NCBI GenBank assembly: GCA_964371045.1
Contig: CAYJMN010000002.1
Location: 60,959 to 124,958, forward strand
Length of the DNA: 64,000 bases
DNA from: an uncultured Chromatiales bacterium
GTDB lineage: Bacteria > Bacteroidota > Ignavibacteria > SZUA-365
Direction: 5' to 3'
The notes below the pieces were generated by a model. The model did not search any database, had not been told where the DNA came from, and was given only the letters and a program-made list of their open reading frames with translations. Shown piece after piece: positions 20,801 through 63,355 of the stretch (positions within the stretch are counted from its first letter, which is position 1; each line of letters begins with the position of its first letter). Made by a program: the position numbers and the translations under genes.

Positions 20801-23800
20801 AAGCTGCCGATACCCTGATCGCTGTAGCCCATGGGCTCCATCACGGTCGGGAAGTCGGGCGAGGTCGACGGCTGCACTTCGGCACCCGTCGAACGGAAGA
20901 AGTAGCCACGATAGAATTCATTCGACTCTGCCGCATTGCGCGGAGTGCCTGTCGGATAGCCTTGGGCAAGAAGATCAGCGACCGTACCCGGGCCCCAGCC
21001 CTCGAGAGGAACAGTCGTACCCTGAGGCTTGCCAGTCGATTTGAAGACCTCGACTGTGCTTGCAACATCAGGAATAACACTGACTTCACCAATGGCGGAC
21101 TGAATCGAGAAATCACAGACGCCAGGAATTGTTTCCAAACGAAGGTGAGCGATAAGACGGACGACATCGGTACCGGCGAGACTCAGCTTGGTGACGTTCT
21201 GCGGTGCGCGGAGATAGAAGCGCACGGCATTGTAACCAAGGAATGCCGGCAAGTCGCCTGCGATACCGGGCAGCGTGTTACCCGGTGCGACGTACACGAG
21301 TACTGCATCGAGAACCTGTCCCGTCACGGGATCAAGTACGGGCTCGGGGTTGTCAATACCACCGGCGCCGCTGTTCGCGACGTTCGCGGAAACCGAAGCG
21401 TAGAAACGCTTGGCGCCCGTGATAGGCGGATAGTACAGCTTGTTGTCGGGAAGTTCGACAAACACGCGGTTCGTGTTCGGGTAGAAGTACGGCGCGATAT
21501 CCTTGGGATTGCCGAAGATATCGGTGATACGGATATACAACTTGTCGAAGATCGGGTTGCGGTAGTTACCAACGCGACCAACCACAAATGATTCGTCACG
21601 ACCGATAACAAGTTCAATGCGCGGCTGACCACCCTGGAAGAAGGTCCAGCCGGTACCGTCCCAAAGAACGTCAGTCGAATCCATCGATGTCGTCTGGCCC
21701 ATGTTCTTGCCCAGCTTTGCATTGTAGCCAGTGCCCGGACCAAACCAGATGCCGAAATTGTTGTTCGGCGAACCGTCAGGGATGAAATTCGAATGCGAGA
21801 AACCGATACCCGGAGTCAAGTCGAGCTTGTTCGGGTCGTTGACATCGCTTCCACGATCGTTGAAGGCGTAGGTCGAACGCACGCGAATACGATACGGACC
21901 GATGTTGTTGCTACCGGAAGCCGCGCGGAACACGCGGTTGTTGCGTCCGAGGTTGGACGTACCGACAAACACGCGACCGGAGTCGATGTTGCCACCAGTA
22001 ACGACGATCGGGGAGATCGGATTAATGAGCGAATCGAAAATACCATTCAGACGATACGGGAAAGGATTGGTAGTGGCGCACAGCTCACCAAACGGAGAAA
22101 GCTCGAACTTGAACTTCTCGTTGTCATCAACTGTGTTGCCATAACCATCGGTCATGAGAATGTCGAGACGCAGATAGTTGTTATCCGCGGTGCCCTTCCA
22201 CTGATCGGTCGGGAGAATGTCGATAGCGCGCGGAATGTTCGGGCGCACGACGATCTTGGAACCGGTGTTGGGAAGAGAATTAACGCCGAGCGGATCCACA
22301 GGCATGCGCTCACCGAACGGATTGCCGTCGTGTGCGTCAAAATACCAGGTGGGACCATTCGTGCGGGCGCCGCCGTCAACAAACGCTTCCTGCGTGCGAT
22401 ATGCGCCGGGCATAAGACCGACAAGACCGCTGCGCGGGAAACCGCCGGACGTATCACCTGTCGCCTGCAACGTACCGGGAATGCCTGCGGGATCGGAATA
22501 ATTGATTACCGCTTCCGCATAAATGCGGACGGAATCCTCAACGCCACCGGCATTGACACCGACGTCGGCGTGAGTATACGCAAGACGACGATAAATTAAC
22601 TGACCGAAGTGACGAACGGTATCGTCAGCAGCCGTCATTCCCCTCAGATACATAGTGCGATCTTCGGGAATGGGATTGCTGATCGTATACGCAAGCGCCT
22701 TAAGAACGGGCTGCGTCATGCGATCCCAGGTACGGTTGCCATACGCATCGAGGAAGCGCAGGGTGTCAACCGCCGAGGAGACGAGACCCGGTTGATAGGG
22801 ATTCGCCGCGACATTGGACGCGCCCGGGCGATACGGGGGAATGAGACCATTGACGGGATTCGGGTTCAGACCGACGTACCAACCGGCTTCGGTGAAGGCG
22901 GCGGGAGCGAGAGCCTGATACAGGTTCGACAGCTTAAGCGGGTTGCGCTCGGGCGGCAAACCGTCGATCATCATGCCATAATCGGGATTAAGGATCGGGG
23001 GATCCGGGGAGCCTACGAACGCGCGGAACTGACCAGGGCGGAAGCTCTGGTGCGCAGTGTTGAGCGGATCGAAAGGCAAGCCGTCGTCACCAAGGAAGTA
23101 ACGACCGCGTGTGTAATCACCGAAAGAACCAATGTATTCACCAGCGTCGACTGCCTGCGCGGAATCCTTGACCCAAACGAGAAGGCGGGTCGTTCCGGGA
23201 AGCAGCTTTACGATTGCGAGATCTGTACCACCAGAGAACTGTCCACTTGGGATTACCGTGCCGTAGGCAAGCGGGTTACCGCTGCTGCCATCAAGCAGGT
23301 AGGCGCGAAGGGTGTCCTTCGTGGTGTCCGGGGGGACAGCCAGACCAAGCAGGTTGTTGATGTTCGGTTTAAAGAAAATGTTTCTGATCTGGATGCCGTC
23401 ACCTGCCGCGGTCGGGTTAGTGACGCGGAAGGTCAGCATCTGACGGATAGCACTCGGGTCGCTATTGAAAGGACTCGAGCTTGCGATATCTCCAACATTG
23501 CGATACACAGGGCGAAGGCCCACGTCACGGCCAGCGGCCGCACCGTCGTTCTGCGGAGGCAGAGCGGTATTCGTGATGACGCCGTCATACTGCTGACGAG
23601 CGAGCGACATCCCGGTAGAAGTGGTCGCAATACGCACACGTACATAGTCAAACACGGTCTGAGAGATCATGTTATTGACAATCTTGAAGCGGTTCTGGAC
23701 AAAGAACACCGCAACGGAATCGTTGTGGTTAAAATTGCCCACCCCACCTCCACTATCAAACAGGGTCAGCGTATCCGCGATAAAGGTCACGGAGTCTGCA

Positions 23801-23925
23801 GTCTGCTCGATGGTGCGTGTGATGTTGAAGAAGTCGCCCTTTACTGTACGGATCTGGGCATTCGCGCTCAATCCAAAGAGCAGCACGAGAGCCAGCACGG
23901 ACAGAAGAGTTAGGGTTTTCTTCAT
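14842..23925 (-). CDS. giant secreted/cell-surface protein (~3027 aa) with a T9SS C-terminal sorting domain; no recognisable catalytic or adhesin domain
   Basis: Signal peptide [24 protein letters not shown] at the internal Met (23923-23925). One uninterrupted ORF of more than 9 kb, rich in G/N/P/T/D. The C-terminus (...[40 protein letters not shown]...[22 protein letters not shown]) is a canonical T9SS CTD. Confidence 0.85.
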   Translation of the reverse strand: [3027 protein letters not shown]

Positions 23926-24353
23926 TCGAGAAATCTCCTGGTTAGTTAAAAAATGGGTCGGGGTAAACGGGTTGAACACTGCACATACCTGGTGGTTAAT
24001 GCTGGTGGTGGTTCGTTCCTCCTGCGAATTTTCAAATTGTTTGTTTTCTCTATGCATCGTAATAATCATTTTTCGGGAAACTCAATTTTGTAATATAGAC
24101 AGGGACTCAATATCAAACAACTTGTCATGACGGTTTCCACCACGCCATTACGCGTGAGGCTACTAGCCAGCATCTGATATGCAAAAACACTGCCAAAAAA
24201 TAAACCGTTTGTTTTCAACAGGTTACGCTTGTCTCAATCGTTGGCGTCAATATGATGACAGGTGTGCTTACGATGATCGACAAGGTTTTGACAATGTAAT
24301 GCCGCCTGGTGTTTTTTATGATGGATAGACCAAACTCGACCCGCGTGACTCAA

Positions 24354-24995
24354 TTACCGCAAATCGATTATTTCAGCTTTCTCGGGCGCGAGGAATTCAA
24401 ACCTGCTGTCGGCAAGTTTCTGATCCACTGATAGCGACTCGATAAGGTACATGGTCACCGCGCCGTTAATGTCCGTCACTTCTACTTTCCGGATATACCA
24501 GTCCTTGCTTACCCAGATCTTCAACGCGGTGGCGAAGGAATTGTCTTCCTTCGGAGTCAGTTTCAACACGTAGCAACGCTGCTTGCCCACCTGCTCTTCT
24601 CCGACCAGCGTCGAATAATAATCTTTCGGGTACTGCAGCAGAAGGCGCTCTGGAGACAATGCGTGAGCTTCGGGCTTGTACGTATCAACCAGCACTTGCC
24701 GGTTCTTCTGATTGTACGACCAAGAGGTCTTGCCGTCCGTTACGACTGTGCGATCCTCTGTTTCAATGCGGTATTTGTTCGGTTTCTTGAAATAGAGGGT
24801 CCCTGTCATGGCCTGCTCCGCGCGGGAAACCTTGAAATGAACGGTCTGCCTGAACGTCAAGGTGACGTCCTTCAGATCGTCGTATTGCGCCTGTACGTTC
24901 TCAATGATCTCACGCGCATCTATACTTAAAGCGAACGAAAGCGGTAGCAGCGCGAGTAGGGGAATCAGTGCGCGAAGGAAAATGCTGGTTCTCAT
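24354..24995 (-). CDS. lolA: outer-membrane lipoprotein carrier protein LolA-like
   Basis: Signal peptide at the internal Met (MRTSIFLRALIPLLALLPLS). LolA-like motifs (LTFRQTV...YFKKPNKYRIE). Immediately downstream of ftsK, the conserved ftsK-lolA arrangement. Confidence 0.7.
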   Translation of the reverse strand: MRTSIFLRALIPLLALLPLSFALSIDAREIIENVQAQYDDLKDVTLTFRQTVHFKVSRAEQAMTGTLYFKKPNKYRIETEDRTVVTDGKTSWSYNQKNRQVLVDTYKPEAHALSPERLLLQYPKDYYSTLVGEEQVGKQRCYVLKLTPKEDNSFATALKIWVSKDWYIRKVEVTDINGAVTMYLIESLSVDQKLADSRFEFLAPEKAEIIDLR

Positions 24996-24996
24996 A

Positions 24997-27804
24997 TTAC
25001 AACTCCTGTAAAATCGATTCGAGAGTGGATTCATCTTCTACCATAACTTGACGAGCTTTGCTCCCGTCGTATGGTCCTACGATGCCCACAGTCTCGAGTT
25101 GATCCACAATGCGCGCCGCACGTGAATACCCGATCTTCAATCGGCGCTGAAGCAGCGATACCGAACCCTGCTGATGTCTGACGATAAGTCTCGCTGCTTC
25201 GTACATCAGGTCATCGAAGTTGTCGGACTCGTCCCGATTCTTCGTCTTCTGGGTGGCGCGCACGGACGGCAATGTATAGGGACGCTGATATCCGCGCTGC
25301 TCGGAAATAAATTCCACCACACGCTCAACTTCGGCAGTGGAAAGAAAGGCATTCTGTATCCGCACCGGCTTCGGATGTCCGCCCGGTACGAACAGCATAT
25401 CGCCGTTCCCGAGCAGCTGCTCCGCGCCCTGTGTGTCGAGCACCGTGCGGGAATCTATTCTGCTCGCCACCTGATAGGCGACGCGAGCCGGGAAATTGGC
25501 CTTGATCACACCAGTGATGACGTCGACGGAAGGACGTTGCGTCGCAACGACCAAGTGGATGCCGACGGCGCGCGCCAACTGTGCGAGCCTCGCGATCGGT
25601 TCCTCCACCTCGCGAGCCGCAGTGATCATCAGATCGGCAAGCTCATCGATGATGACGACGATGCACGGCAGCTGGTAATGCTTTATCGTTTCGCTGTCCC
25701 GCACCTGACCGGCCTTGAGCTTCGCATTGTAATCGTCGACATGACGCACGCCCGCCTTGGCCAGCTTCGTGTAGCGCATGTCCATTTCGAGTTCCAGGCT
25801 CTTCAGAACGATTACGGCATTCGTCGGATCGGTGATGATCTCTTCGTCGATATCCGCGCAGACGGCAAGGAAGTGCCTGTTCAGTCCGCGATACTGCGCC
25901 AACTCGATTTTTTTCGGATCGATCATGACGAACTTCACGTCCTGTGGCCGCAGCTTGTAGAGCAGACTCGTGATCATCACATTGATGCCGACGCTTTTTC
26001 CGGAACCCGTCGCACCGGCGATCAGCAAATGCGGCATTTTCGCAAGGTCATCGCAAACAACAGCGCCGTTGATCGATTTCCCCATGCCGAGCGTGAGCTT
26101 GTGCCGTGATTTCTGAAACTCAACGGACGTCACAACCGAACGAAAACTCACCATTTCCGGCTGATTATTCGGGATTTCAATTCCCACGGCGCTCTTGCCC
26201 GGAATCGGCGCGATGATTCGGATGCCTCTGGCGGCCAGGGCCAACGCAAGGTCGTCGGCAAGCGATACGATCTTGCTGATTTTGACGCTCGAGTCGGGAA
26301 CGAGTTCGAAAAGCGTCACAACGGGACCAGGGGCGACAGAAATGCTCGTGATACCTATCCCGAACACGGCCAGTTTCTCCTTCACCAGCTCGGCTTTCAA
26401 CCTGAGTTCCGCATCCGTAACAGTGTTGGTGGTCCTTTGTGGATCGAGCAGCTCGGGAGTCGGCAATCGATAGGATAATTCCGTCTTCGCAAGCCTCTGA
26501 TTGAGGGAATCAATGTCTTCGTCGGTTTCGGACTGCATCACTTTGCGTGCGACCGCCTGTTGAACGGCCTTGCGTTCATGCTCGTTGAGCATGACGTTGG
26601 AAAGAGGGATCTCACTATCGATTCCGCCAGCGCCACAATCACCTGCCTCCCTTGATACCCTCTCGTCACCGGGTGCGTCCGCATCGGGCGAAACAGCGGC
26701 GGAACGCGGTGATGCGTTTTTCGAGGCCGTGCCTGGAACGTCGCTCCCTGATTGTGAGGCGACGGCGCCAGCCGACGCGCCTGCGGCAATCGGTCCAGCA
26801 ACGGCAGAATCCGCGGGTCCGAAAATATCGCGAAGCCCTTCGATGGCGTCTCGGGAGATGGTACCATTGGACCGAGGCGTGAGACCATCATCGGACTGCA
26901 CCGGTCCGGCGTGTTCCGCGGGGTCATCCTGCCAAGACCGGGCGATGGATACAGGAGTGGATCGGACGAGAGGCTGCAAAGGCGCAGGTGCGGCAACCGA
27001 CGGAGGTTGTGGCGTGGCGCTTTTTCGCTGCCGCGGCGGCGGCGTATCGGTCCCTTCGGCGGTGATGCTCTGCTGCAACTCGAGGGAAAGCGCGCCGCGT
27101 TCGGCCTGAAGCGCCGATTGCAGCTTCCCGGCTTTCCCTGAGACGCGATCCATCAACCACTGACCAATGTCTTTCGCCCGCGTAAGCGTGGCCTGAATAT
27201 CGTAGTCGACAACAATGACGGCCATGACCACAATGGTGGTGAACATGACGATCACACCGCCTGTCGTGCCTATCAGTCGAGAGATCAATCCTGCGACGAA
27301 ATCACCGATATTGCCTGACCAGGAGACGGAAATATCCGGCATCCAGGAAATCAGACGAACGAGTCCGAGAAATGTCGAACTTAGCAGGACAACTACCAGT
27401 GCGTGATTAGTATAGTACGCCAGAGCCCGAAGGTCGCGTCGGCGCAGAATTGACCATCCCCAGAGCATTAGCAGAATGGGAAAGGTGATGGCAAAATAGC
27501 CGACTGTAATGTTGATAAGGAAATTTGCCAGAATGGCACCGAACAGACCGAGCCAGTTGGACGTCGTATCGGCGCGCGCCTGAATTTCCGGATCTCCGCC
27601 GAACAGTCTGACAAAATCTCCGAAACCGATATCGGCCACGGTCTCATCCGCGTGCGAGTGCGATACCAGCGCCAGCAGCATCAACAGCGCAACCACCATC
27701 ATCATTATCCCGATGATGTCGAGTTTGCGTTTCGAATCCAACCCCTTCTTTGGGGCGGGAGCCGCGTCGCCGGCGGTATTCTTGCTTTTGCGTCGCACTG
27801 TCAT
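24997..27804 (-). CDS. ftsK: DNA translocase FtsK/SpoIIIE
   Basis: N-terminal TM helices, a low-complexity linker, an ATPase domain with Walker A GATGSGKSVGIN and Walker B VVIIDELADL, and a C-terminal winged-helix gamma domain (LYEAARLIVRHQQGSVSLLQRRLKIGYSRAARIVDQLE). Confidence 0.9.
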   Translation of the reverse strand: MTVRRKSKNTAGDAAPAPKKGLDSKRKLDIIGIMMMVVALLMLLALVSHSHADETVADIGFGDFVRLFGGDPEIQARADTTSNWLGLFGAILANFLINITVGYFAITFPILLMLWGWSILRRRDLRALAYYTNHALVVVLLSSTFLGLVRLISWMPDISVSWSGNIGDFVAGLISRLIGTTGGVIVMFTTIVVMAVIVVDYDIQATLTRAKDIGQWLMDRVSGKAGKLQSALQAERGALSLELQQSITAEGTDTPPPRQRKSATPQPPSVAAPAPLQPLVRSTPVSIARSWQDDPAEHAGPVQSDDGLTPRSNGTISRDAIEGLRDIFGPADSAVAGPIAAGASAGAVASQSGSDVPGTASKNASPRSAAVSPDADAPGDERVSREAGDCGAGGIDSEIPLSNVMLNEHERKAVQQAVARKVMQSETDEDIDSLNQRLAKTELSYRLPTPELLDPQRTTNTVTDAELRLKAELVKEKLAVFGIGITSISVAPGPVVTLFELVPDSSVKISKIVSLADDLALALAARGIRIIAPIPGKSAVGIEIPNNQPEMVSFRSVVTSVEFQKSRHKLTLGMGKSINGAVVCDDLAKMPHLLIAGATGSGKSVGINVMITSLLYKLRPQDVKFVMIDPKKIELAQYRGLNRHFLAVCADIDEEIITDPTNAVIVLKSLELEMDMRYTKLAKAGVRHVDDYNAKLKAGQVRDSETIKHYQLPCIVVIIDELADLMITAAREVEEPIARLAQLARAVGIHLVVATQRPSVDVITGVIKANFPARVAYQVASRIDSRTVLDTQGAEQLLGNGDMLFVPGGHPKPVRIQNAFLSTAEVERVVEFISEQRGYQRPYTLPSVRATQKTKNRDESDNFDDLMYEAARLIVRHQQGSVSLLQRRLKIGYSRAARIVDQLETVGIVGPYDGSKARQVMVEDESTLESILQEL

Positions 27805-32830: not shown

Positions 32831-33176
32831 CGACTGTACCGATGAGTGAGCCCATAGAAATTTCCATTGCGCGAGACGCCTCCAAGCAGTAACATGTGTG
32901 CTGCCATGCGCCTCGCGATATTGGTGCGACATTTCAATATAGCCATTTTCACAAAGAGTGACTGTTGCACGGACCGATGCATGTTGCGTATTTTTGGTGT
33001 TGGCCGATAACTTCGTTTGAAGATTCCCGTCCATCTGGAAATCGTCTTTTATCCGCAAGTCCCCAGAATCGATCACCTCATTGCTGAAGGGTCTCTATCG
33101 AGCAAATCGCTACAGTACAACTGACTGATCTCCACTCGCACACGGCAAGAGACGATTGACTGCCAACACGAATCGA

Positions 33177-36100
33177 ATGAGACCTTCATCCCGTTACTCG
33201 GGCGATGGGCGAGGTGTATCCTCGCCAGTCCGCTATTATGGCGCGGTGATCGGCGCCTCGGCGCTGTCGTTGCTGCTGTTTCTCGGCGCATCGGCAACAC
33301 CCGCGTTTCCGCGGTATCACATCACCATCGAAGCGGCTCGAGCCTGGAATCTGGCGATCGCGGCACTCGCTTTCGTCCCTCCCGCCGCCGAAGCCGAAGC
33401 CGCGACGCTTCAACCGCACACGGAGGAATCGACTGCGGTCGAGGAAGCTTCCACCGTCCCTGCGCTCGAATTCGATCTGTCTGATCTTTTGCCGTCGGCT
33501 GGCCCCGGCATAAACGAAAACCGGCACCCGGTAATTTCAGATCCGTTTTTCGCCGACATGGAACTCGCCGCGTTTGCGGCTTCACTCCCGCGGCCGGACG
33601 ATAGTCTTGATATCCCTCCATCCGACAGCACCACTCGAGCGAAATTTCTTCCTCAACGCCGTCGTCCCTCACCGGTTACACAGCCATTCCCTGAACGCGT
33701 TTCTCCGCTGTATTTGAATTCGGGAGCCATTACACGCCTTGTGACCATCGACTCTTCAAAAAACGAGGTGCTTATTAGGGAGACCGTGAATGGAAAGGAC
33801 ATTCGCATTCCCTATCGCATGACGCTCGAGGATTACATTCGTGCCCGATACAATTACGAGCGCGAACAGCGCACGGCGGCTGAAGCAGCGCGGTTCGAAA
33901 AACAGGAAGGCGACCAGCTCGAGCAATTGCTGAAAAACCTGACCGAGATCGACATTCCTATCGCCCCGAATCCGTTGATGAGTATTTTCGGCGACCGCAG
34001 CCGCATCAGCGTGCGAATCAACGGCGCTATCGATATCAATGCCGGATTCCGCATTGAGTCATCGGACCAGCAATCGGTGTTCCTTCGCCCGACGCAATTC
34101 TCTCCGAACTTCAAACAGCAGGTGCAGATCAACGTCAACGGTATGGTCGGCGACAAGCTCAGCATCAAGGCGGATTGGAGCACCGAGCGGACCTTCGATT
34201 ACGAGAACCAGCTGAAAATAAAATACACCGGCTATGAGGATGAAATCGTTCAGTCCGTGGAAGCGGGAAACGTTTCTCTGCAAACGCCCTCGTCGCTCAT
34301 TCAGGGAAGCGGCGCACTGTTCGGCATCAAGGCGGAGTTCCAGTTGGGTCCACTCCATCTATCCACGATCGCCTCGCAGAAAAAGGGCGAATCGTCGAAG
34401 CTGTCCGTTTCCGGCGGTGCCCAGGAGCAAAAGTTCGAACGGCGCGCATACGAGTATTCGGACAATTATTATTTTATCGATCTCGCCTACCGGGAAGACA
34501 ACAACGAAGGAAATAACCAGTACGAGTCCTATTATAACTTCCGATTCACGCATCCGGGATCCAAGGCACCGTACATTCTGTTTCCCTCGTTGATCGTCAA
34601 GGAAATCGAGGTCTGGGTATCCCGACCAGCCAGTTCGGGCGTCATAACCGATCCCCAGGAACGCGAAGCGATTGCCTTCATCGACAATCCCACGGGCTAC
34701 GAACCTTCATCCTCCGATTTCCCGTCAGAATACACACCATTCCTCGATCCAGGCCTCACGGTGACGCCGGAATCCGGCTTGATCGAGGCAGGCAAATTCA
34801 AGCGCCTCCAGCGTGACATCGACTACACTCTGAGCAACGCGACCGGTATCATTTCCTTGAATCAGAGTCTCCAGGACGATCAGGTTGTTGCCGTCGCATA
34901 CCGTATCGAGGGTCCCAGCGATCTTACTCCGACGGACGACATCATCTTTGGTACTTTCGCAGGCGACCCGCGTCTGAAGGTGTACAAGGATGCGAACGGA
35001 TTGGATGTACCCTCACGCATGGTGCTGAAACTGGTCAAGCCGCGCAACCTGACTCCCTCCTTCGAGAAGGCGTGGAAGCATAAAGTGAAGAGCATCTATT
35101 CGCTGAACACCCGCAACATGCGCGCGGAGGATCTGGCGAATTTCAAGCTCATGTACCGAAGCGGCGGCCAGCCCGACCAGGAAGTGCTGCCCGATATCAG
35201 TGCGCTGCTGATCCGTCTGTTCGGTCTCGACAATACGGATGACAATGGCGGCTACCCCGATTCAAAAATCGATTTTCTTCCCGGATTGACGGTCAATCCT
35301 GTGCGCGGCGAAATCATTTTTCCGACCCTCGAGCCATGGGGACAGGGCCTGCTGGACAATTTCAAGCAGTTGTTGCGCAGCCAGGATACCTCGTTGATCA
35401 AGCCCTTCCTGTTCCCGGAATTGTACAGCGACACAAAGCAGGGAGCACAGAGGACCGGTAAAGATAAAATCCTGATTCTCGGTACCACGCGCGGTTCGAG
35501 TTCGGCCATTTTTCAACTCGGTTTCAATGTCGTCTCTGGCTCGGTGCGTGTGACGCTCAATGGTTCTCCGCTCACACCCGGAGTTGACTACACCGTTAAC
35601 GAGCAGGTTGGTTCCGTTCAGATTCTTAAGGAGGAAGCGCTCGCACCGGGAGCGAAGCTTGACATCGAATACGAGAAACAGGACCTCTTCACCTTCGCAT
35701 CGAAGACCCTCGTCGGTGCACGTGGAGAAATAGATATCAATAAGGAGTCGTACCTCGGATTCACCTTCCTGAGCCTGAGTCAGAAAACACTCAGCGACAA
35801 GGTGCGCATCGGCGAAGAACCCATCAGCAACAGCATGTTCGGCGTCGACGCAAAGACGATGCTTGAACTCCCCGTCCTCACTGACGCTCTCAACACACTT
35901 CCCTTCATTTCGACGAAAGAGAAGTCGACACTCACCCTGCAAGGCGAAGCTGCGATGGTGATGCCCGGCGGAGATTCAAAAACCAGCACCATCCCTTCCG
36001 ATAATGGCGAAAGCATAGCATATCTGGATGATTTCGAGGGCTCGCGCATTTTCATTCCTCTGCAGACCGCGTATTCCGTGTGGCGCACCAGTTCCGTGCC

Positions 36101-39100
36101 CAACGTACTGCCGAGCAACAACGCCGCCAACGACAGCATCATGAATACCAACCGGGCCATGCTGAATTTCTACAATCTCGATATCTCGTCCACGTCGCCC
36201 AGGACCGTTCGTGTCGATGACATCTGGCCCGAAAAAAGTGTCGCGCGCGAGGACCAGCGTGTGACCGTACTGGATCTCGATTACTATCCGACGGTCAGGG
36301 GGCCATACAACTACACACCCGATCTCGGTGTACAGCAGCGCAACTGGGGCGGCATCATCCGCTTGCTTCCGTCCAACGCGTCCAACCTTGTGGACGGTAA
36401 CTTCAACTACATCGAATTGTGGATGAAGGTGGACAACCACAGCGGCGGCAAGCTGATCATAGACATGGGAAAGATTTCGGAGGATGTGATCCCGAATGGG
36501 AAACTCGAATCCGAGGACGACTACCTCCCGGGATCGATTCGTAACGGCATTCTCAATGCCGGCGAAGACGTGGGTCTGGATATGCTTACCGACGATCAGG
36601 AGCGCGAGCGTTACGCCGCCGAGATCGCCGCCGGCTTGATCGATGCGGTAGATCCGAGCGGGGATAATTTCCGGTACGATCCAGACAACTGGAGAAGCTT
36701 CAACGGCACACAGGGCAACGGCGACGAGGAGGACGGAGATCCTGCGGGTCAATTCCCCGACACGGAGGATCTGAACAACAACAGCATTCTGGATCTCGCC
36801 AACGATTATTTCCGTTTCGTGATCGATCTCGACACGACGCGCTTCGATCTCGGCGCCGTGGATCACAATCCCTATGTTGTCGGCGGCGGCACCAACGGAT
36901 GGTATCAGTTCCGCATCCCGCTCAACGTGCCGGATGATCGCATCGGCACTCCTGCGCTCGATAACGTCGAGTATTTGCGCGTTGTGCTTACCGACATCGA
37001 GAGTCAGGATGCCGCGACTCCGGTCAACGTGCGCATCGCCGAGTTCAACCTGGTCGGCAATCAGTGGTACGAGCGCGTACGCAACGATTCCAATTTCGCG
37101 GTGTCCGTCGTCAATGTCGAGGATAATCCCCTTTACGAGGTGCCGCCGGGGGTTATTCGTCCCCGGGACCGTACCAGACCCGATCAGCAGATTTTCGGCA
37201 ACGAGCAGTCACTGAATTTGAGTTTCGACAATCTCAAAACCGATACGCTTCGTGAAGCATATAGGCTCTTCCCCGGAACGGGCATCGACCTGTTCAACTA
37301 TCGTCGCCTCAAAATGTACGTTTACGGTGATCCGCTTCTCGATGGCTTCGATTACGAGGTCGTGATGCGTTTCGGCATCGACACGGCCAATTATTACGAG
37401 TATCGGGCGCCGATCAGACCGCGATGGGCTGATGAGAACGAAATAGACATCGATTTTTCCGAATTGACCGCTGTGAAAGCGATCATCGACGCAACTTCCA
37501 CCTACGATGATTTCCCGTCCAGCAGCAATCCCGACGCGCATTTCTGGGTATACGGCAGCCCCGATATCGTCCGTGTTCAATTCATCTCCGTTGGCGTCCG
37601 GAACATGGACAGCAGGGAAATCAGCGGCAACGTGTGGATCAATGAACTCCGCGTTATCCAACCGAACACGCAAATCGGCTACGCCTACAACGCATCCATG
37701 AACCTCCGGCTGGCCGATATCGCGGATATCAGCGCCAGCATGATGCACAGTGACCCGTACTTTCACGGTATATCCGAACGCTTCAGCGCCAATCGCGCGT
37801 GGACGACGGCCTGGAACATGAATACGACGTTGAATATCGACCGGGTCTTTCCACAGGATTGGAAGGGAACGCAGGTACGCGTGACCTACTCGCATGCGGA
37901 GAATCTGAGCAAACCGCTTTTGCTCGCCGACAAACCCGATGTCGTGGTTGAAGCTTCCGTGTCAGCCCTTGCGGAAAAAATGCGGGGTGAAGGCAAATCG
38001 CAGAGGGAAATCGACATCGAGGTGCGCAACGCCCGCATCGCGACGCAGACGCTCGAGATTCGCGACAGTTGGGCGATTCCCACCGTCAGGCTCAAGGCCC
38101 CGGGCGAAAGCTGGCTGGTTCAGGATGTGGTCAATCGTCTCGAATTGAGCTACAATTATTCGGTGACCCGTTTTCGCGATCCGGTGTTCCGCTCCCGGCG
38201 CAACTGGCAATGGCAGGCGAGGGTCGGTTACGGGTACGACTTCGGAAGAGAATCTTATGTCCAGCCATTCAAGAAGCTATTTGACGGCGTGTTCCTCCTC
38301 GATGCCTATCGCGACGCGAAATGGTATTTTCTGCCTACACGTATCGGAACCGATGCGACACTCGATCGTTCGCGCATCGAAGAGGTTGAGAGATTCCCGC
38401 TGCGTTACCGTCCTTTCACACGATCCTTTACGCACAGTCGGTCGGCGAACCTCTCGTTTACACTTTCGGAAGCCAGCCTTCTCAATCTCAGCGGAAGCAT
38501 TGGATCGAACATCCGCACGTCGCTTCTCGGTCTTGAAACCGAGCAGGTCTTCGATGCCAATGGCGACCAGGTGGTCGACGATTTCGGGATCCCTGTCGTG
38601 ACGCAACGCCAGAGTTCAGCGATTTTCCGCGATATCTTCTTCGGGAAGGGACACTTCGATCTTGGTCCCGCCACCAATTACCAGCAGCAATTCTCCCTTC
38701 AAAGCCGACCTGCGATTCCGAATATCTTCAATCTCGATAAATTTGTCGATTTGAGCGCCGGTTACACCGTTTCCTACAATTGGCAGCAGAACATCCAGCA
38801 GGCGGACCAGGGTCGGACGGCGAGTTACAACGCCAGCATCAACTCGACGCTGAACGTCAAGCTGCGGCAATTGTTTGAGCCTCTTTTTGGTTCCGCTAAA
38901 CCTGCAGCCCCTGTTCCGGACAGAAAGCCCGTGCCTGGAAGAACCATGCCCGCGAAACCGGATAAGGCGCCGACCGATTCAGGCGAAGATGGGGAAAGAA
39001 TCGAGGACCTCCCGTTGCGTCTCCTGATCGAGCGCCTTGAACAGCTCGATCCCACGTTATATGCGATGGAAATAGAGAAGCTCCGTCCGGTGGTTGAGTT

Positions 39101-40646
39101 GGAATTGCAGCTTCGCGAAATGAAGCGCAATGCGCGCCAGGATGAAGACATGGAGAGAGTCATACAGATCAACGAGGAGATACAGCTTGCCCGGAAACGA
39201 GCAATCGCCCTGCTCAAGAATCAAGCTGAACCTGTTGGCGAGGAAGAAGACCCTCAGGCCGGCGGTGGTTCAAATCCCTTTTCGCTGATCGCAGGTACAT
39301 TCGGCGATATTCTCTACTATGGTCTGAAGGTCCCGTTCCTGGATTACGATAATGTAGGGTTCACTTTTTCGCAGGGCAACACCAGCCAGGTTGGCGGTGT
39401 ACGCGGTCTGACGGGTTTCACGACCTTCTGGTCGAGCACACCGTTCGGCAACCAACCCAACGCAGACGAGGGACCATCTCAATTGTATCAGCTCGGTCTG
39501 GTCAGCGATCCGAATCCCTCTTCCGGACGAATCGCGTTCAAGAGCAGCTTCCCCTTTATCGGGATTGAGGACTATAGTCGCGGTCTCCGCGCGCCGAATC
39601 CCAGCGGAACGTTCGCGGATAACTACGCACAATCCAATACCTTCTCCATCAAGACCAATCGCCCACTCTGGGAAGGCGCCCGTCTTGATCTCAACTGGGA
39701 TCTGCGCTGGTCGCTCAACAAGAATTACCAGATCCGGACAACGGATCAGGGCGAGCAGATCATTACAAGCATCACCACAACTGGACGACTCGAGCGTTCT
39801 TTTCTGGCTTTCCCCGATTTCCTTTTCTTCAGTTATTTCAACACGAACATGAATTCCGTCAATGAGCGGTTCACTGAGCTGAAGAACGATCCGACCGACA
39901 TGAGAATCGAGTCCGAAAAACTTGCCCAGGCATTCGAGGAGGGATTCGAAGCTATTCCCTGGCTTTCCTCGGTCATGACCAATTTCCTTCCTCGAGTCAA
40001 CTGGGGTATCCGGTGGGACGGGATGGAAAAATGGAGCCTCCTGAGCGGACTTGCGGATCGCATCTCTTTGGAACACCGTTATTCCTCGAACCTCGCCGAT
40101 GGATGGCGTTTGAGTCCTGACGACGGCTCCCGCCTCACTGAAACGAAGCAGGTTGGTTTCAATTTCCAACCGCTCATAGGTGTCCAGCTCGGGTTTAATC
40201 AACTCTGGGGCGGCGATCTCAGCGTCACGACACGATGGAGCAAGAAAGGTACATTCGGCCTGAATTCCTCCGCGAGCAACATCACCGAAGACAACACGGA
40301 TGAGATCACCATGACCGCCGAGTTCAAGAAAACCGGCTTCGACATGCCCTTGTTCGGCCTGACGTTGAAAAACGACATCAATTTCAATGTCGCCTTCAGT
40401 CTCGCGAAGAATTCGTCACGTATCTACAGCATCAACGACCTTGGTAGCGGTGGTCAGCCTCGCGAAGGAACCACACGCACCACAATCGAGCCGCGCGTCC
40501 GTTATTCCGTCAGCCAGCGTGTGCAGGCGTCCATTTTCTATCGGTACCAAAGGACCAAGCCCGATGCCGAAGCCGGCTCGCGCATCCCCGGTACCACCGT
40601 GCACGAAGGCGGCCTCGAAATACGCATTACCATCGCCGGTTCATGA
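33177..40646 (+). CDS. sprA: T9SS outer-membrane translocon SprA/Sov (cell-surface protein SprA)
   Basis: ORF of about 2490 aa, matching SprA size. N-terminal hydrophobic signal-like segment, then extremely long beta-rich sequence throughout. Sits in a T9SS-bearing genome context with three CTD cargo genes in the window. The start is ambiguous: TTG at 33156 or ATG at 33177. Confidence 0.75.
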   Translation: MRPSSRYSGDGRGVSSPVRYYGAVIGASALSLLLFLGASATPAFPRYHITIEAARAWNLAIAALAFVPPAAEAEAATLQPHTEESTAVEEASTVPALEFDLSDLLPSAGPGINENRHPVISDPFFADMELAAFAASLPRPDDSLDIPPSDSTTRAKFLPQRRRPSPVTQPFPERVSPLYLNSGAITRLVTIDSSKNEVLIRETVNGKDIRIPYRMTLEDYIRARYNYEREQRTAAEAARFEKQEGDQLEQLLKNLTEIDIPIAPNPLMSIFGDRSRISVRINGAIDINAGFRIESSDQQSVFLRPTQFSPNFKQQVQINVNGMVGDKLSIKADWSTERTFDYENQLKIKYTGYEDEIVQSVEAGNVSLQTPSSLIQGSGALFGIKAEFQLGPLHLSTIASQKKGESSKLSVSGGAQEQKFERRAYEYSDNYYFIDLAYREDNNEGNNQYESYYNFRFTHPGSKAPYILFPSLIVKEIEVWVSRPASSGVITDPQEREAIAFIDNPTGYEPSSSDFPSEYTPFLDPGLTVTPESGLIEAGKFKRLQRDIDYTLSNATGIISLNQSLQDDQVVAVAYRIEGPSDLTPTDDIIFGTFAGDPRLKVYKDANGLDVPSRMVLKLVKPRNLTPSFEKAWKHKVKSIYSLNTRNMRAEDLANFKLMYRSGGQPDQEVLPDISALLIRLFGLDNTDDNGGYPDSKIDFLPGLTVNPVRGEIIFPTLEPWGQGLLDNFKQLLRSQDTSLIKPFLFPELYSDTKQGAQRTGKDKILILGTTRGSSSAIFQLGFNVVSGSVRVTLNGSPLTPGVDYTVNEQVGSVQILKEEALAPGAKLDIEYEKQDLFTFASKTLVGARGEIDINKESYLGFTFLSLSQKTLSDKVRIGEEPISNSMFGVDAKTMLELPVLTDALNTLPFISTKEKSTLTLQGEAAMVMPGGDSKTSTIPSDNGESIAYLDDFEGSRIFIPLQTAYSVWRTSSVPNVLPSNNAANDSIMNTNRAMLNFYNLDISSTSPRTVRVDDIWPEKSVAREDQRVTVLDLDYYPTVRGPYNYTPDLGVQQRNWGGIIRLLPSNASNLVDGNFNYIELWMKVDNHSGGKLIIDMGKISEDVIPNGKLESEDDYLPGSIRNGILNAGEDVGLDMLTDDQERERYAAEIAAGLIDAVDPSGDNFRYDPDNWRSFNGTQGNGDEEDGDPAGQFPDTEDLNNNSILDLANDYFRFVIDLDTTRFDLGAVDHNPYVVGGGTNGWYQFRIPLNVPDDRIGTPALDNVEYLRVVLTDIESQDAATPVNVRIAEFNLVGNQWYERVRNDSNFAVSVVNVEDNPLYEVPPGVIRPRDRTRPDQQIFGNEQSLNLSFDNLKTDTLREAYRLFPGTGIDLFNYRRLKMYVYGDPLLDGFDYEVVMRFGIDTANYYEYRAPIRPRWADENEIDIDFSELTAVKAIIDATSTYDDFPSSSNPDAHFWVYGSPDIVRVQFISVGVRNMDSREISGNVWINELRVIQPNTQIGYAYNASMNLRLADIADISASMMHSDPYFHGISERFSANRAWTTAWNMNTTLNIDRVFPQDWKGTQVRVTYSHAENLSKPLLLADKPDVVVEASVSALAEKMRGEGKSQREIDIEVRNARIATQTLEIRDSWAIPTVRLKAPGESWLVQDVVNRLELSYNYSVTRFRDPVFRSRRNWQWQARVGYGYDFGRESYVQPFKKLFDGVFLLDAYRDAKWYFLPTRIGTDATLDRSRIEEVERFPLRYRPFTRSFTHSRSANLSFTLSEASLLNLSGSIGSNIRTSLLGLETEQVFDANGDQVVDDFGIPVVTQRQSSAIFRDIFFGKGHFDLGPATNYQQQFSLQSRPAIPNIFNLDKFVDLSAGYTVSYNWQQNIQQADQGRTASYNASINSTLNVKLRQLFEPLFGSAKPAAPVPDRKPVPGRTMPAKPDKAPTDSGEDGERIEDLPLRLLIERLEQLDPTLYAMEIEKLRPVVELELQLREMKRNARQDEDMERVIQINEEIQLARKRAIALLKNQAEPVGEEEDPQAGGGSNPFSLIAGTFGDILYYGLKVPFLDYDNVGFTFSQGNTSQVGGVRGLTGFTTFWSSTPFGNQPNADEGPSQLYQLGLVSDPNPSSGRIAFKSSFPFIGIEDYSRGLRAPNPSGTFADNYAQSNTFSIKTNRPLWEGARLDLNWDLRWSLNKNYQIRTTDQGEQIITSITTTGRLERSFLAFPDFLFFSYFNTNMNSVNERFTELKNDPTDMRIESEKLAQAFEEGFEAIPWLSSVMTNFLPRVNWGIRWDGMEKWSLLSGLADRISLEHRYSSNLADGWRLSPDDGSRLTETKQVGFNFQPLIGVQLGFNQLWGGDLSVTTRWSKKGTFGLNSSASNITEDNTDEITMTAEFKKTGFDMPLFGLTLKNDINFNVAFSLAKNSSRIYSINDLGSGGQPREGTTRTTIEPRVRYSVSQRVQASIFYRYQRTKPDAEAGSRIPGTTVHEGGLEIRITIAGS

Positions 40647-60011: not shown

Positions 60012-60469
60012 GAAGACTCCGATTTCTGGAAACCACACCATACAATGATCGGAAAGACCATCGAAGCGCACAAATGCCGGATGAATGTTCGAGAACGATG
60101 AATTCACACCATAACCTTCGAACCGTCTCCAAGCCGCAGTTTCAGGTTGTTTATTGCTCCAACTAGCACGAGATCGCTTCGATGATAACGAGGCACCGAC
60201 GCGGTGCGACAGAGAAAGGTTCAATTTATTGCGGACGCCGGGCCTTGAGATCCCTCGTCCGGCATTTTCTCGTGCATGGATGAATTACTGCACTACTTTT
60301 CATTCACACGATGGTAACCTTCACTCACCCTGCGGTGTTTATAATTCAGGAAGTGAGAGACGGCAAGATACCTTCCTCCTTAATGATGGATAGACTCAAT
60401 ACCTTCCTGTGAACAGGCTCAGTAACGGCACCCCTCACATAGTCTTGTCGCCTCAGCTTTCAATGTTCC

Positions 60470-60513
60470 GAAGATCCCGGTTTCCCTCCTCTGACCGGGA
60501 TCTTCCTTTTTTA
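60470..60513 (+). terminator. strong rho-independent terminator/attenuator hairpin on the + strand, 155 bp upstream of the 60668 start codon
   Basis: Perfect 12-bp stem GAAGATCCCGGT/ACCGGGATCTTC with a 12-nt loop, immediately followed by CTTTTTTA. There is no coding ORF upstream of it on the + strand back to the divergent sseA gene. Confidence 0.65.
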
Positions 60514-60667: not shown

Positions 60668-63355
60668 ATGAAAACATCAAGACATTTTTGTGTGACAATA
60701 TTTGGCTTGAGCGTTCTGCTGACCTGTACATATTCGGTTTTCGGGCAGGTGCGATTGTGGGACACAACCGGTGTCGCGGTTTGCACCGCGGACGGATGGC
60801 AGCGAGCACCGCGCTTGACGCCGGATGGAAGCGGTGGCGCCATCATTGCATGGGAGGATCTCCGTTCGGGATCGCAGACCGCCATTTATGCTGCTAGAAT
60901 CCTTCCCACAGGCATACTGCCATGGCGGAGCAACGGTGTTGAGGTTAGTCCGCCTGGTAGCGGAACACGGCTCGCCGGCCTCCTGGAGGATGGTGATGGC
61001 GGCGCATTTCTTGCCTGGTGGAGCACTTCAAACGGACATTCCGATATTTTCGCGCAGCGAATCGACAAGAACGGTGCATTGCGGTGGATCAACGGACCCC
61101 TCCGCGTATGCGGCGCTCCCGGCGACCAACAATGGGCTGAAATGATTGCCGATGGCGAAGGTGGAGTAATCATCGCCTGGCATGACGGGCGGGGTAATGA
61201 CAACGACATTTACGCGCAGCGAATCACCGCTGATGGCACCGTGCTTTGGACAGAAAACGGTGTTGCAGTTTCCACCGCCACGGGTGACCAGTCCTACCCC
61301 CAACTCGCCTCAAACCGCAACGGCGGCGCATTTATCGCATGGATGGACAGAAGAACCGAGGACGACATCTACATGCAGCATGTCCTGTCAGATGGAACCC
61401 TGCATATTCCGGAAGACGTTGCGGTATGCGTTGAGCCCAATCGACAGGTAGCACCAAAGGTGGGTCAATTCGGCGACGACAAGGTGGTGGTGTTCTGGCA
61501 GGATTATCGTCTCGGTACGACGACGTCCGCCCTGTACCTGCAGATATTCGACGACGACGGACAAAAGACCTATGTAGAAGATTACCAGGTGACGCAGTCC
61601 GACAAATCGCAGAGCGGCATGATGCTCACCAGCGATGGACAACGCGGTTCACTCGCTGTCTGGGCGGATTTCAGGAAAGCGGAATCGGATGGCGACATTT
61701 ATATGCGACGTATCAATGCGGATGGCAGCATTATCGGTGATTTCGGCAACGCCATGTGTGACGCGACCGGGACGCAGGAACGACCGCAGATGATCAACGA
61801 CGGTTTTGGTGGGGCATTCGCGGTTTGGCAAGACAAACGCAACACCTTCGATTACGATCTCTACATGAACCGCATCTCTGCTCAGGGAACGACAAACTAC
61901 ACGGATTGGAACCGCCATTCCGGCATGCTGCTGCACAAGGCGGACAACAACCAGCTTTCTCCCCAGGTCGTGTCATCCACAGTCGGCACGGCGATTATCG
62001 TGTGGTACGATGGCCGCGTACTGGACGGGCAGGCGGATATTTACGCACAGCGCGTCGCCTGGGCTCCGAGCATCGTACGACCGGACTCCGTTACTTTTGG
62101 CCTTTTTAAGACCGGCCTTACCGTTTTCGACACTCTTACCATCAAAAACAACGGGCCCTTACCGCTGCTGATCACCAATATTCGACGTGCCAGCGATCCA
62201 GCCACAACGCATCCCGGGGACTTCACCTGGCAGCCAACAATACTGATTCCGTACACTCTCCAGCCGGATTCTTCCGTCGATCTGGTTACATCCTTCAAGC
62301 CCGGTGGAATTGGACGACGCATTTCCGAGTTGCGAATAAGCAGCAATGCACCTGAGGATCCGGCAGTCATCAATCTCATTGGGATAGGCACAAATCCCAG
62401 GCTTGAAACGCCATCGGTCCACCAGTTTGCCGTCACCAAGCCAGGACAAATCAAAGAGGAGGAGCTTCAGGATTTCATCAGCAACACCGGGTCCGGAACG
62501 CTGGTTCTGCATCGCATCGAAATAACCGGTAGGGACAGCATGCTCTTTTCGAACGGAAACAATCCTCCTTTCCCCATTGAAGTACCCGAGCAGCAATCCA
62601 TTTCGTTGCGTCTCCGTTTTGCTCCCGATTCCGTCGGACCCAAGGAGGCGACGCTCCGTCTTTTTCACAACGGAGACAGCATCCCGCGCAGCGTCCGTCT
62701 ATCCGGTATCGCCGCCCTACCGACAATGTTGACCTCACCGATCACGCAATATTTCGATACGACGATGGCCACGGCGACACAGGAGGCGCAGATCCGCATT
62801 CGCAACACCTCCGGAGTCGAGCTTGTGGTCTCGGATCTCGTGTTGGCCGGCGATGATCCCGGAGAGTTCTCGGTACAAGCGACCCTGCCGATGCTCATCC
62901 CCGGAGACGCATCGGATACGTTTCTGCTGCGTTTTCATCCAACCAGCGCGGGATTGAAACGAGCAGAGCTGATTATTGTATCGGATGCTCCGTCATCTCC
63001 GGACAGCTTGCGCATCAACGGACCCGCTACGCCCTTGAGCATCATCGAGGCGCCCTCGGCGACGGACTTCGCGCTGCATTCCCTCTACCCGAATCCCGTT
63101 TCGCTCGCGCGCCCATTCACCGTCGGTGTTCGTCTTCCCGCGTCCTCAATGGAATCGCTACATCTGCGCCTTACCGATATACTCGGGCGCGAACATGAGA
63201 TATGGACAGGAACGGACATCCATGGAGCGAATCTCGTTATCCCTGTTTCGCTGCGCGATTCCGGTATCGCCCCCGGTCATTACACGATCACTGCCGAGCT
63301 GCGGAAAGGACGACGAATTCTACGTACATCGCAGTCGGTGTTGATATTACCGTGA
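60668..63355 (+). CDS. T9SS-secreted cell-surface protein: signal peptide, 8 x ~50-aa repeat predicted beta-propeller, Ig-like (ASH/choice-of-anchor-type) domains, T9SS C-terminal domain
   Basis: Signal peptide MKTSRHFCVTIFGLSVLLTCTYSVFGQ. Eight repeats of consensus D-G-x-G-G-a-h-I-A-W-x-D-x-R-x-(n)-D-I-Y-a-Q-R-I. Middle region of Ig-fold-like segments (TIKNNGPLPLLITNIRRASDP...; NTGSGTLVLHRIEITGRDS...). C-terminal T9SS CTD (LYPNPVSLARPFTVGVRLP...GHYTITAELRKGRRILRTSQSVLILP). Confidence 0.85.
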   Translation: MKTSRHFCVTIFGLSVLLTCTYSVFGQVRLWDTTGVAVCTADGWQRAPRLTPDGSGGAIIAWEDLRSGSQTAIYAARILPTGILPWRSNGVEVSPPGSGTRLAGLLEDGDGGAFLAWWSTSNGHSDIFAQRIDKNGALRWINGPLRVCGAPGDQQWAEMIADGEGGVIIAWHDGRGNDNDIYAQRITADGTVLWTENGVAVSTATGDQSYPQLASNRNGGAFIAWMDRRTEDDIYMQHVLSDGTLHIPEDVAVCVEPNRQVAPKVGQFGDDKVVVFWQDYRLGTTTSALYLQIFDDDGQKTYVEDYQVTQSDKSQSGMMLTSDGQRGSLAVWADFRKAESDGDIYMRRINADGSIIGDFGNAMCDATGTQERPQMINDGFGGAFAVWQDKRNTFDYDLYMNRISAQGTTNYTDWNRHSGMLLHKADNNQLSPQVVSSTVGTAIIVWYDGRVLDGQADIYAQRVAWAPSIVRPDSVTFGLFKTGLTVFDTLTIKNNGPLPLLITNIRRASDPATTHPGDFTWQPTILIPYTLQPDSSVDLVTSFKPGGIGRRISELRISSNAPEDPAVINLIGIGTNPRLETPSVHQFAVTKPGQIKEEELQDFISNTGSGTLVLHRIEITGRDSMLFSNGNNPPFPIEVPEQQSISLRLRFAPDSVGPKEATLRLFHNGDSIPRSVRLSGIAALPTMLTSPITQYFDTTMATATQEAQIRIRNTSGVELVVSDLVLAGDDPGEFSVQATLPMLIPGDASDTFLLRFHPTSAGLKRAELIIVSDAPSSPDSLRINGPATPLSIIEAPSATDFALHSLYPNPVSLARPFTVGVRLPASSMESLHLRLTDILGREHEIWTGTDIHGANLVIPVSLRDSGIAPGHYTITAELRKGRRILRTSQSVLILP

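Follow-up and report, generated by a model that had tools for sequence, protein, structure and literature searches.

The gene at positions 60668 to 63355 of the 64-kb stretch of DNA analyzed here (the window; all features below lie on its plus strand) encodes an 895-aa precursor whose head is confidently predicted, from structural modeling, to be an eight-bladed β-propeller. The reading to which we give roughly even credence is that the product is a Sec-exported, T9SS-translocated surface protein in which a non-catalytic, ligand-binding propeller is followed by an Ig spacer and a diverged type-A C-terminal domain (CTD). The gene call (ATG start, 895 aa), which matches the ORF list and includes the stop codon, agrees with the sequence-only reading, and the identical product occurs on 24 metagenome contigs through independent gene calls. 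In order, the precursor comprises a signal peptide, the propeller, three Ig-like domains and the T9SS CTD. Orthologs with the same architecture share 45 to 62% identity with the protein, and the nearest named relative of the gene comes from an Ignavibacteria MAG (63% identity). The upstream leader, in which a hairpin spans positions 60470 to 60512, gave chance-level Rfam matches only, and the 64-kb window holds no Rfam family at the gathering threshold.

Residues 1 to 26 (MKTSRHFCVTIFGLSVLLTCTYSVFG, followed by Q; positions 60668 to 60745) have the features of a Sec signal peptide, as found in T9SS type-A cargo, with a basic n-region and a hydrophobic core legible in the sequence. Residues 3 to 27 form a lone, detached helix in the AF2 model, and the A/QW junction is common to the protein and its homologs. 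Cleavage would probably fall after residue 26, so that the mature protein would begin with Gln. We rejected the possibility that the protein is a lipoprotein, since L-L-T-C (residues 17 to 20) is not a canonical lipobox and its Cys is missing in orthologs.

The repeats that suggested a propeller in the first place are borne out. The four example strings given in the sequence-only reading lie at residues 53-78, 108-132, 162-186 and 378-403, and all eight units are anchored by a tryptophan (W62, W117, W171, W225, W277, W332, W387 and W446, spaced 55, 54, 54, 52, 55, 55 and 59 aa apart). Mean pairwise identity among the eight units is 29%. BLASTP of residues 27-250 against 251-470 gave E = 2e-27, and an HMM built from units 1 to 4 alone scored 95.3 bits on the remaining protein, picking up units 5 to 8, compared to a maximum of 4.4 bits on 500 shuffled sequences; the repeats are therefore not due to chance. 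Within the domain (residues 27-468; positions 60746 to 62071), unit boundaries were set by unit alignment, and a family-derived single-blade HMM found each of the eight blades singly, at 20.8 to 73.2 bits. Unit 1 (residues 38-92; 60779 to 60943; 68.6 bits), also supported by the DSSP strand order, is followed by unit 2 (93-146; 60944 to 61105; 38.8 bits), unit 3 (147-200; 61106 to 61267; 73.2 bits) and unit 4 (201-252; 61268 to 61423; 54.9 bits). The second half holds unit 5 (253-307; 61424 to 61588; 20.8 bits), which is the most diverged, unit 6 (308-362; 61589 to 61753; 35.7 bits), unit 7 (363-421; 61754 to 61930; 54.5 bits), in which the C-D loop is longer, and unit 8 (422-468; 61931 to 62071; 39.1 bits), which has strands A to C only. 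Departures from the motif are strongest in blade 2, where W-x-D-x-R is degenerate (WWSTSNG), and in blade 5 (FGDDKVVVFW...SALYLQ).

Structure prediction upheld the eight-bladed propeller, returning eight four-stranded antiparallel sheets in a closed toroid. In the DSSP order, the strand VAVC (residues 36-39) stands ahead of the A strand of blade 1 and blade 8 has strands A to C only, which together imply a 3+1 velcro closure in which the first strand of unit 1 is predicted to complete blade 8. Each blade unit would read as a D strand (GVxIC), TAxxxQ, an A strand (xxPxIxSD), GxGG, a B strand (AIIxWxD), xRxGxxxD, a C strand (IYAQRI) and xxxGxxQW. The repeated motif (the DGxGG turn, W-x-D-x-R, DIYAQR and G..W) chiefly provides the structural framework of each blade, and the conserved W, D, R and Q residues may be purely structural in role.

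That the propeller belongs to no clear family, as the sequence-only reading had it, held up in every search. Kelch, PQQ, YVTN, FG-GAP, tectonin, WD40 and PD40 had no Pfam match at E ≤ 10, and no named propeller family, SBBP and BNR included, matched the protein, the isolated domain or the family consensus at that threshold. Pfam and NCBIfam yielded no propeller family above its cutoff, whether the query was the entire protein, the propeller domain, the CTD or the family consensus; among PDB sequences, neither the whole-domain nor the single-blade profile found a match to the propeller (best E = 0.11). Short motif matches on homologs to DUF1491, Mtf2_C, DUF4114, BiPBP_C, GH85_C and GH43 were rejected as family assignments because no stretch passed. 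A resemblance to PD40/TolB suggested by the motif pattern was likewise not supported, with hhalign against the PD40 region of an S9 peptidase encoded in the window giving a probability of 0.4%, a weak test with a single-sequence template. The sole curated models to give any signal were TIGR04275 ("beta_prop_Msarc", NCBIfam) and PF03640 (Lipoprotein_15, "secreted repeat of unknown function"), both describing functionally uncharacterized repeats that are secreted or surface-located; neither entry carries an assigned function or a solved structure. PF03640 is also listed as COG4315, the Yx(FWY)xxD repeat. The nearest, the repeat model TIGR04275, reached 23.4 bits on the protein (cutoff, 85) and 24 to 30 bits on orthologs, and on an artificial family consensus it reached 79.2 bits with all eight blades matched. 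PF03640 reached 66.5 bits on that consensus, with four blades matched, and 30 to 32 bits on some homologs, where no stretch passed; it did not match the 895-aa protein at E ≤ 10 (Pfam cutoff, 24.4 bits).

The family itself is very large, widespread and described by no curated database; we found no Pfam or NCBIfam model, solved structure or literature for it. It comprises 24,143 clusters at E ≤ 1e-3, with hosts among FCB bacteria, Planctomycetota, Chloroflexota, Nitrospirota, Acidobacteriota and Promethearchaeota, and at least 6,000 clusters at 50% identity, drawn from Asgard archaea and from bacteria of more than 20 phyla. Several copies per genome are frequent. Judged by these sequence relationships, the protein is one among thousands of family members and no rare oddity.

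Ligand binding is the most likely function of the propeller, and five lines of evidence point to a non-catalytic binding role. First, across 94 homologs, the positions conserved family-wide are identical in every blade, and no blade-specific, active-site-like residues are conserved. Second, the domains that accompany the propeller in 43 larger members are all either modules for sorting or anchoring (FlgD_ig, Por_Secre_tail and CHU_C) or Ig/adhesin spacers (PKD, ASH, Big_9, cadherin-like, CARDB and LTD), and no catalytic or CBM domain recurs. Third, the propeller is joined to interchangeable anchors, namely the T9SS CTD, FlgD-Ig, archaeal C-terminal transmembrane (TM) helices, or a lipoprotein plus PKD/TIG. 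Fourth, no conserved operon partner was found at 63 loci, where the sole recurrent neighbors are tandem paralogs, up to four in a row. Fifth, among five same-architecture ortholog sequences, non-motif loop positions are conserved at 48% on the top face compared to 25% on the bottom face (P = 7.6e-5), the faces being assigned from general propeller topology. We therefore propose that the propeller acts as a non-catalytic binding platform. In the host, probably an FCB-group (Ignavibacteria-like) bacterium, the protein would be exported by Sec and translocated by the T9SS to the cell surface. Once the signal peptide is removed, the N-terminal 440 residues would form the closed eight-bladed propeller, whose working surface would be the top face built of the D-A and B-C loops. 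The likeliest ligand would be polymeric, for instance an extracellular glycan or the surface of another cell.

We think it possible, if rather unlikely, that this large, unrecognized and near-perfectly repetitive superfamily goes further and carries an equivalent ligand site in each blade, formed on the top face by C-T-A...Q and W-x-D-x-R. If so, it would represent a new octavalent lectin or adhesin class into which different lineages have plugged their own anchor (a T9SS CTD, FlgD-Ig, a TM helix or a lipid).

An alternative hypothesis is that the propeller has a structural or scaffolding role at the surface, as a unit of a protein coat or S-layer-like lattice or as a BamB/WD40-like platform on which proteins dock, and is not a ligand-specific adhesin. 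We regard this as unlikely: no evidence of lattice formation or self-association was found, and the additional conservation of the top face among orthologs fits a specific partner. The scaffold and the binding platform overlap as explanations because a protein partner is a ligand too. Less probable still is that the propeller is an extracellular enzyme that the T9SS exports to help the cell acquire nutrients, for example a lyase or hydrolase acting on polysaccharides or some other catalyst with its site in the central channel. Cargo of the T9SS in Bacteroidota often consists of glycan-degrading enzymes, and CylK heads the Foldseek list of PDB fold matches (E = 1e-12, TM 0.59), which also includes sialidases, GH145 and the PL25/PL42 lyases. 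However, these enzymes match at no more than 14% identity and TM 0.59, and have six or seven blades. Likewise, the sub-threshold GH43 matches (17.9 bits; cutoff, 32.2), like similar ones, include no passing stretch, the neighborhood is neither PUL-like nor enzyme-rich, and the lack of blade-specific residues and of recurrent catalytic or CBM fusions described above argues against catalysis.

Returning to the proposed surface-displayed binding protein, the region after the propeller bears on how it would be presented. Ig-like domains had been read at this place from the sequence, and NF012200 recovered them at 114.8 bits (cutoff, 45) in three stretches (about residues 471-565, 587-681 and 682-777; positions 62078 to 62998). 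They are of the choice-of-anchor-D / ASH / Cep192_D4 type, with PF22544, PF22073 and PF15780 (HYDIN_VesB_CFA65-like_Ig, Cep192_D4 and ASH) all exceeding their Pfam cutoffs, and the domains are kept in four orthologs. The AF2 pLDDT is below 50 across this stalk, which is unresolved in the full-length model because the alignment lacks depth there. The three domains would serve as a spacer.

The C-terminal 100 residues (796-895; positions 63053 to 63352; motifs LYPNP, DILGR and GHY) resemble a diverged T9SS type-A CTD. Here the sequence-only reading was upheld, albeit for a diverged domain: the relationship to T9SS CTDs stood, whereas the curated models PF18962 and TIGR04183 failed to match at E ≤ 10. 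A custom HMM of 53 CTDs scored 24.0 bits on the domain compared to at most 5.5 bits on 1,000 shuffled sequences, and the AF2 model has seven strands (pLDDT 77 to 92), as in the published definition of the Ig-like CTD fold (PMC11285876). An alignment with at least 60 CTD-bearing homologs brings the PNP, DxxGR and GxY motifs into register, and the P808, N809, P810, G840, G870 and Y872 columns are invariant. The domain also resembles a bona fide CTD elsewhere in the window (phmmer, 2.9e-6), in an ORF that passes TIGR04183. Orthologs form a graded TIGR04183 series in which one (P0245) passes at 41.1 bits and two others (P0163 and P0187) score about 18 bits. In addition, the window encodes T9SS machinery, with SprA/Sov at positions 33156 to 40646 (TIGR04189, 1019.6 bits), and two further proteins with TIGR04183 CTDs. 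Against all of these results, it is very improbable that the protein is no T9SS substrate and that its C-terminal domain is an extra Ig/FlgD-like β-sandwich on a periplasmic or otherwise released protein, even given the silence of both curated models beside a faint FlgD signal (15.3 bits), a terminal SVLILP unlike the usual K-x-x-L-L-K/R ending and the lack of any database match when the CTD by itself served as the query. We infer that the protein depends on the T9SS and is anchored or displayed at the surface: the diverged CTD would direct passage through the SprA translocon and then be removed, leaving the protein attached to, or released from, the outer membrane. Because the host is Ignavibacteria-like and not a member of the Bacteroidota, it is an extrapolation to assume cleavage by PorU and anchoring to A-LPS.

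Both the β-propeller fold and the T9SS export route are well known, and thus no new principle is at stake. Yet the family is very abundant in environmental genomes, and its definition would allow annotation of thousands of proteins now labeled "hypothetical" or "T9SS sorting domain-containing" and would indicate a widespread surface-recognition module in uncultured lineages. With blades this regular, the family is well suited to the study of propeller amplification. The graded divergence of the CTD suggests that, outside the Bacteroidota, real cargo escapes the curated T9SS-CTD models.

Among known propellers, the PLL-family lectins (PLL 5c9o, BP39L 6gxr and CV39L 6gxs) and tachylectin-type lectins have seven blades compared to the eight found here, at 9 to 10% identity, and the match to Pfam Tachylectin falls short of significance (E = 1.2 to 6.6). 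Eight-bladed propellers of the WD40/BamB type (Cdc4 1nex_B, Sif2 1r5m, BamB 4hdj/8adg and the designed Bagel8/Ika8) share 5 to 16% identity with no HMM match, and their motif differs from the DGxGG / WxDxR / DIYAQR blade. They also differ in location, BamB being a periplasmic lipoprotein and WD40 proteins cytosolic, whereas the protein described here is probably extracellular and T9SS-sorted. Unlike canonical T9SS type-A cargo (TIGR04183/PF18962), its CTD falls under the curated thresholds. In common with such cargo (of the P. gingivalis RgpB/HBP35 type), it has a signal peptide ahead of a functional domain, then Ig-like spacers, and at the C-terminus a seven-strand β-sandwich with PNP, DxxGR and GxY motifs, and the gene for the SprA translocon lies nearby.

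The open reading frame that the sequence-only reading had placed at 60668-63355 is present on the plus strand and encodes 895 amino acids; all of the repeat strings quoted there were found in the protein. Gene calls made independently on 24 metagenome contigs, one of them 2.45 Mb long at ~936x coverage, gave an identical 895-aa product. Its eight units are anchored by W62, W117, W171, W225, W277, W332, W387 and W446, with a period of 52-59 aa and an average pairwise identity of 29%. This repetition is far above chance: residues 27-250 match residues 251-470 by BLASTP (E=2e-27), an HMM built from units 1-4 alone recovers units 5-8 at 95.3 bits (500 shuffles reached 4.4 at most), and each of the eight blades is matched by a single-blade HMM from other family members (20.8-73.2 bits). 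The final 9 nt of the gene, stop codon included (63347-63355), overlap the 3' end of a convergent minus-strand CN-hydrolase gene.

AlphaFold2, supplied with an alignment of residues 24-476 and 93 homologs, returned a domain model (mean pLDDT 92.7, pTM 0.92) of 32 β-strands in a regular 8x4 pattern. Within each blade, strand A corresponds to the motif Q..P.I..D, strand B to GAIIAW.D, strand C to DIYAQRI and strand D to GV.IC. Residues 36-39 (VAVC) form a strand ahead of blade 1, and blade 8 comprises strands A-C only, a strand order from which the ring would be closed by a classical 3+1 "velcro." Foldseek matches to the model were all propellers, comprising CylK (E=1e-12, TM 0.59), PLL-type lectins, sialidases, GH145 and PL25/PL42 lyases, with no close structural match among them. 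Structure prediction and structural search thus both give a propeller rather than another fold, as had been predicted from the repeats. In the family consensus, a cysteine at the end of strand D (ICTA) is present in every blade; in the propeller protein and its closest orthologs it is retained chiefly in the alternate blades 1, 3, 5 and 7 (C39, C149, C254, C364), where it may provide free thiols, bind metal or do nothing.

The family had been called unclear, and no curated propeller family in Pfam or NCBIfam claims the domain: there was no Kelch, PQQ, YVTN, FG-GAP, tectonin, WD40 or PD40 match at E≤10, and the protein fell short of the threshold of every curated propeller family tested. The nearest curated signals are far under their cutoffs, namely the TIGR04275 "beta_prop_Msarc" repeat model (23.4 bits; cutoff, 85), PDIAV_lipo (17 bits; cutoff, 90) and the subthreshold DUF5122 and GH43. 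An artificial family consensus matched TIGR04275 over all eight blades at 79.2 bits, still below the cutoff of 85, and Pfam PF03640 ("secreted repeat of unknown function") over four blades. These sequence matches are leads to a possible distant kinship with repeat models of unknown function, and not to membership; we found no literature on the function or structure of either model. Neither the whole domain nor a single blade, used as profiles against PDB sequences, gave a match on the propeller. Kinship with PD40/TolB, tried with the PD40 region of a single S9 peptidase sequence from the window as template, gained no support (hhalign probability, 0.4%). The family adds a new, unmodeled sequence lineage to a well-known fold and is not a novel type of system; unannotated propeller families are unsurprising in themselves, and no unusual mechanism is indicated.

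The lineage is large, phylogenetically broad and wholly uncharacterized. A word-indexed search gave at least 6,182 clusters (90% identity) with the propeller, and HMMER, run exhaustively over 1.84 billion representatives (50% identity), retrieved 24,143 proteins at E≤1e-3, 14,426 at E≤1e-10 and 6,043 at E≤1e-30. One blade pattern matched >573 loci in GTDB species genomes. Members occur in Ignavibacteriota, Bacteroidota, Chlorobiaceae, Latescibacteria, Krumholzibacteriota, Eisenbacteria, Sumerlaeaceae, Planctomycetota (including Ca. Brocadia sapporoensis), Chloroflexota, Nitrospiraceae, Acidobacteriota, Actinomycetota, Verrucomicrobiota, Poribacteria, Aminicenantes and several Promethearchaeota (Asgard archaea), under the public names "hypothetical protein," "T9SS type A sorting domain-containing protein" and JGI "predicted lipoprotein with Yx(FWY)xxD motif" only. 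The consensus unit is NGVxICTAxxxQxxPxIxSDGxGGAIIxWxDxRxGxxxDIYAQRIxxxGxxQWTx, and 175 of the 186 members examined have exactly eight blades; a few have 12-16, which implies two propellers. Multiple propellers also occur in single proteins (e.g., P0125, 4506 aa, and P0129, 5506 aa), and tandem arrays of two to four paralogous genes in Nitrospiraceae (locus L045), Chitinophagaceae (L048), Ignavibacteria (L082/L058) and at L063. In the Promethearchaeota/Lokiarchaeota (loci L022, L031, L033 and L041; proteins P0046, P0099, P0012 and P0024), the same eight-bladed domain ends in a hydrophobic helix and basic tail in place of a C-terminal sorting domain (CTD), which suggests that the module passed between domains of life and exchanged its anchor.

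Upstream of the gene, a 13-bp perfect hairpin followed by a U-tract (60470-60512, +; minimum free energy, -22.6 kcal/mol; z=-4.7) forms, with the ~80 nt 5' of it, a conserved leader block (60389-60512, +). At the orthologous Ignavibacteria BM516 locus (L004), the block retains ~85-90% DNA identity and is far better conserved than the coding sequence, the encoded protein being only 63% identical. The stem carries two compensatory changes (C-G to U-A, G-C to A-U), the CU-rich loop (UCCCUCCUCUG) is invariant, and the stretch from hairpin to ATG is unconserved. No Rfam family matches the element, a candidate attenuator or small RNA.

The likeliest reading of the propeller protein is a noncatalytic binding propeller; less probably, it could be a structural or scaffolding coat component. 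At 63 loci, the only genes recurring nearby were those of other CTD proteins and paralogs in tandem, in runs of up to four, and the genes flanking the propeller gene in the window are unrelated housekeeping genes. At positions outside the family motif in five same-architecture orthologs, the loops of the canonical top face of a propeller (D-A and B-C) are conserved at 48% and the A-B and C-D loops at 25% (p=7.6e-5). Less probably still, the protein could be an enzyme. Across the family, conservation is the same in all eight blades, nearly invariant columns all lie within the repeated motif, and no single blade has a conspicuous residue of the active-site kind. No catalytic domain recurs among 43 larger members, whose co-occurring Pfam domains are only Ig/adhesin spacers and modules for sorting or anchoring. 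The anchor of this putative binding propeller varies by lineage: T9SS CTD, FlgD-Ig, archaeal C-terminal transmembrane helices, or a lipoprotein signal with PKD/TIG.

That the protein is not a T9SS substrate at all finds some support in the failure of its C-terminal 100 residues against both PF18962 and TIGR04183, but on five grounds they are identified as a T9SS sorting domain of type A that has diverged, so that the CTD claimed in the sequence-only reading stands in this form, outside the curated models. First, an HMM of 53 bona fide homolog CTDs scores 24.0 bits (≤5.5 in 1000 shuffles), its alignment spanning YPNP, DxLGR and GxY. Second, a full-length alignment with homologs that bear CTDs has P808, N809, P810, G840, G870 and Y872 as invariant columns. 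Third, AlphaFold2 gives residues 796-895 as a seven-strand domain (pLDDT 77-92), which is how T9SS CTDs are reported to be built (PMC11285876). Fourth, ortholog CTDs are graded against TIGR04183, P0245 passing (41.1 bits) and P0163 and P0187 reaching ~18 bits. Fifth, the domain's closest relative in the window is the CTD (TIGR04183, 31.7 bits) of a gene running off its left edge (3-371, +; phmmer 2.9e-6). The window also encodes SprA/Sov, the T9SS outer-membrane translocon (33156-40646, +; 2496 aa; TIGR04189, 1019.6 bits), so the organism has a T9SS, and a 3075-aa giant ORF (14842-24069, -) with a canonical type-A CTD end (...NYPNPFNP...KMTLLK; TIGR04183, 34.9 bits). A LolA1_Flavo-type lipoprotein chaperone (24354-25034, -; 115 bits) and an outer-membrane protein resembling SusC/TonB-dependent receptors (8324-10678, -) fit a diderm host of the FCB group.

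The protein starts with a typical signal peptide, for which cleavage is predicted at VFG|Q, and many homologs share a ...A|QW start; these junctions recall the Bacteroidetes "Q-rule," which its source paper limits to Bacteroidetes proper (PMC5837995). The Ig-like domains proposed in the earlier reading are three in number; they lie between propeller and CTD (residues 471-777) and are of the choice-of-anchor-D/ASH/Cep192_D4 type (NF012200, 114.8 bits; cutoff, 45). They are kept in four same-architecture orthologs and were left without an AlphaFold2 model because alignment depth was absent in that region. We infer that the protein would depend on the T9SS and be anchored at the cell surface, where it would resemble canonical T9SS cargo: an interaction propeller carried on an Ig stalk.
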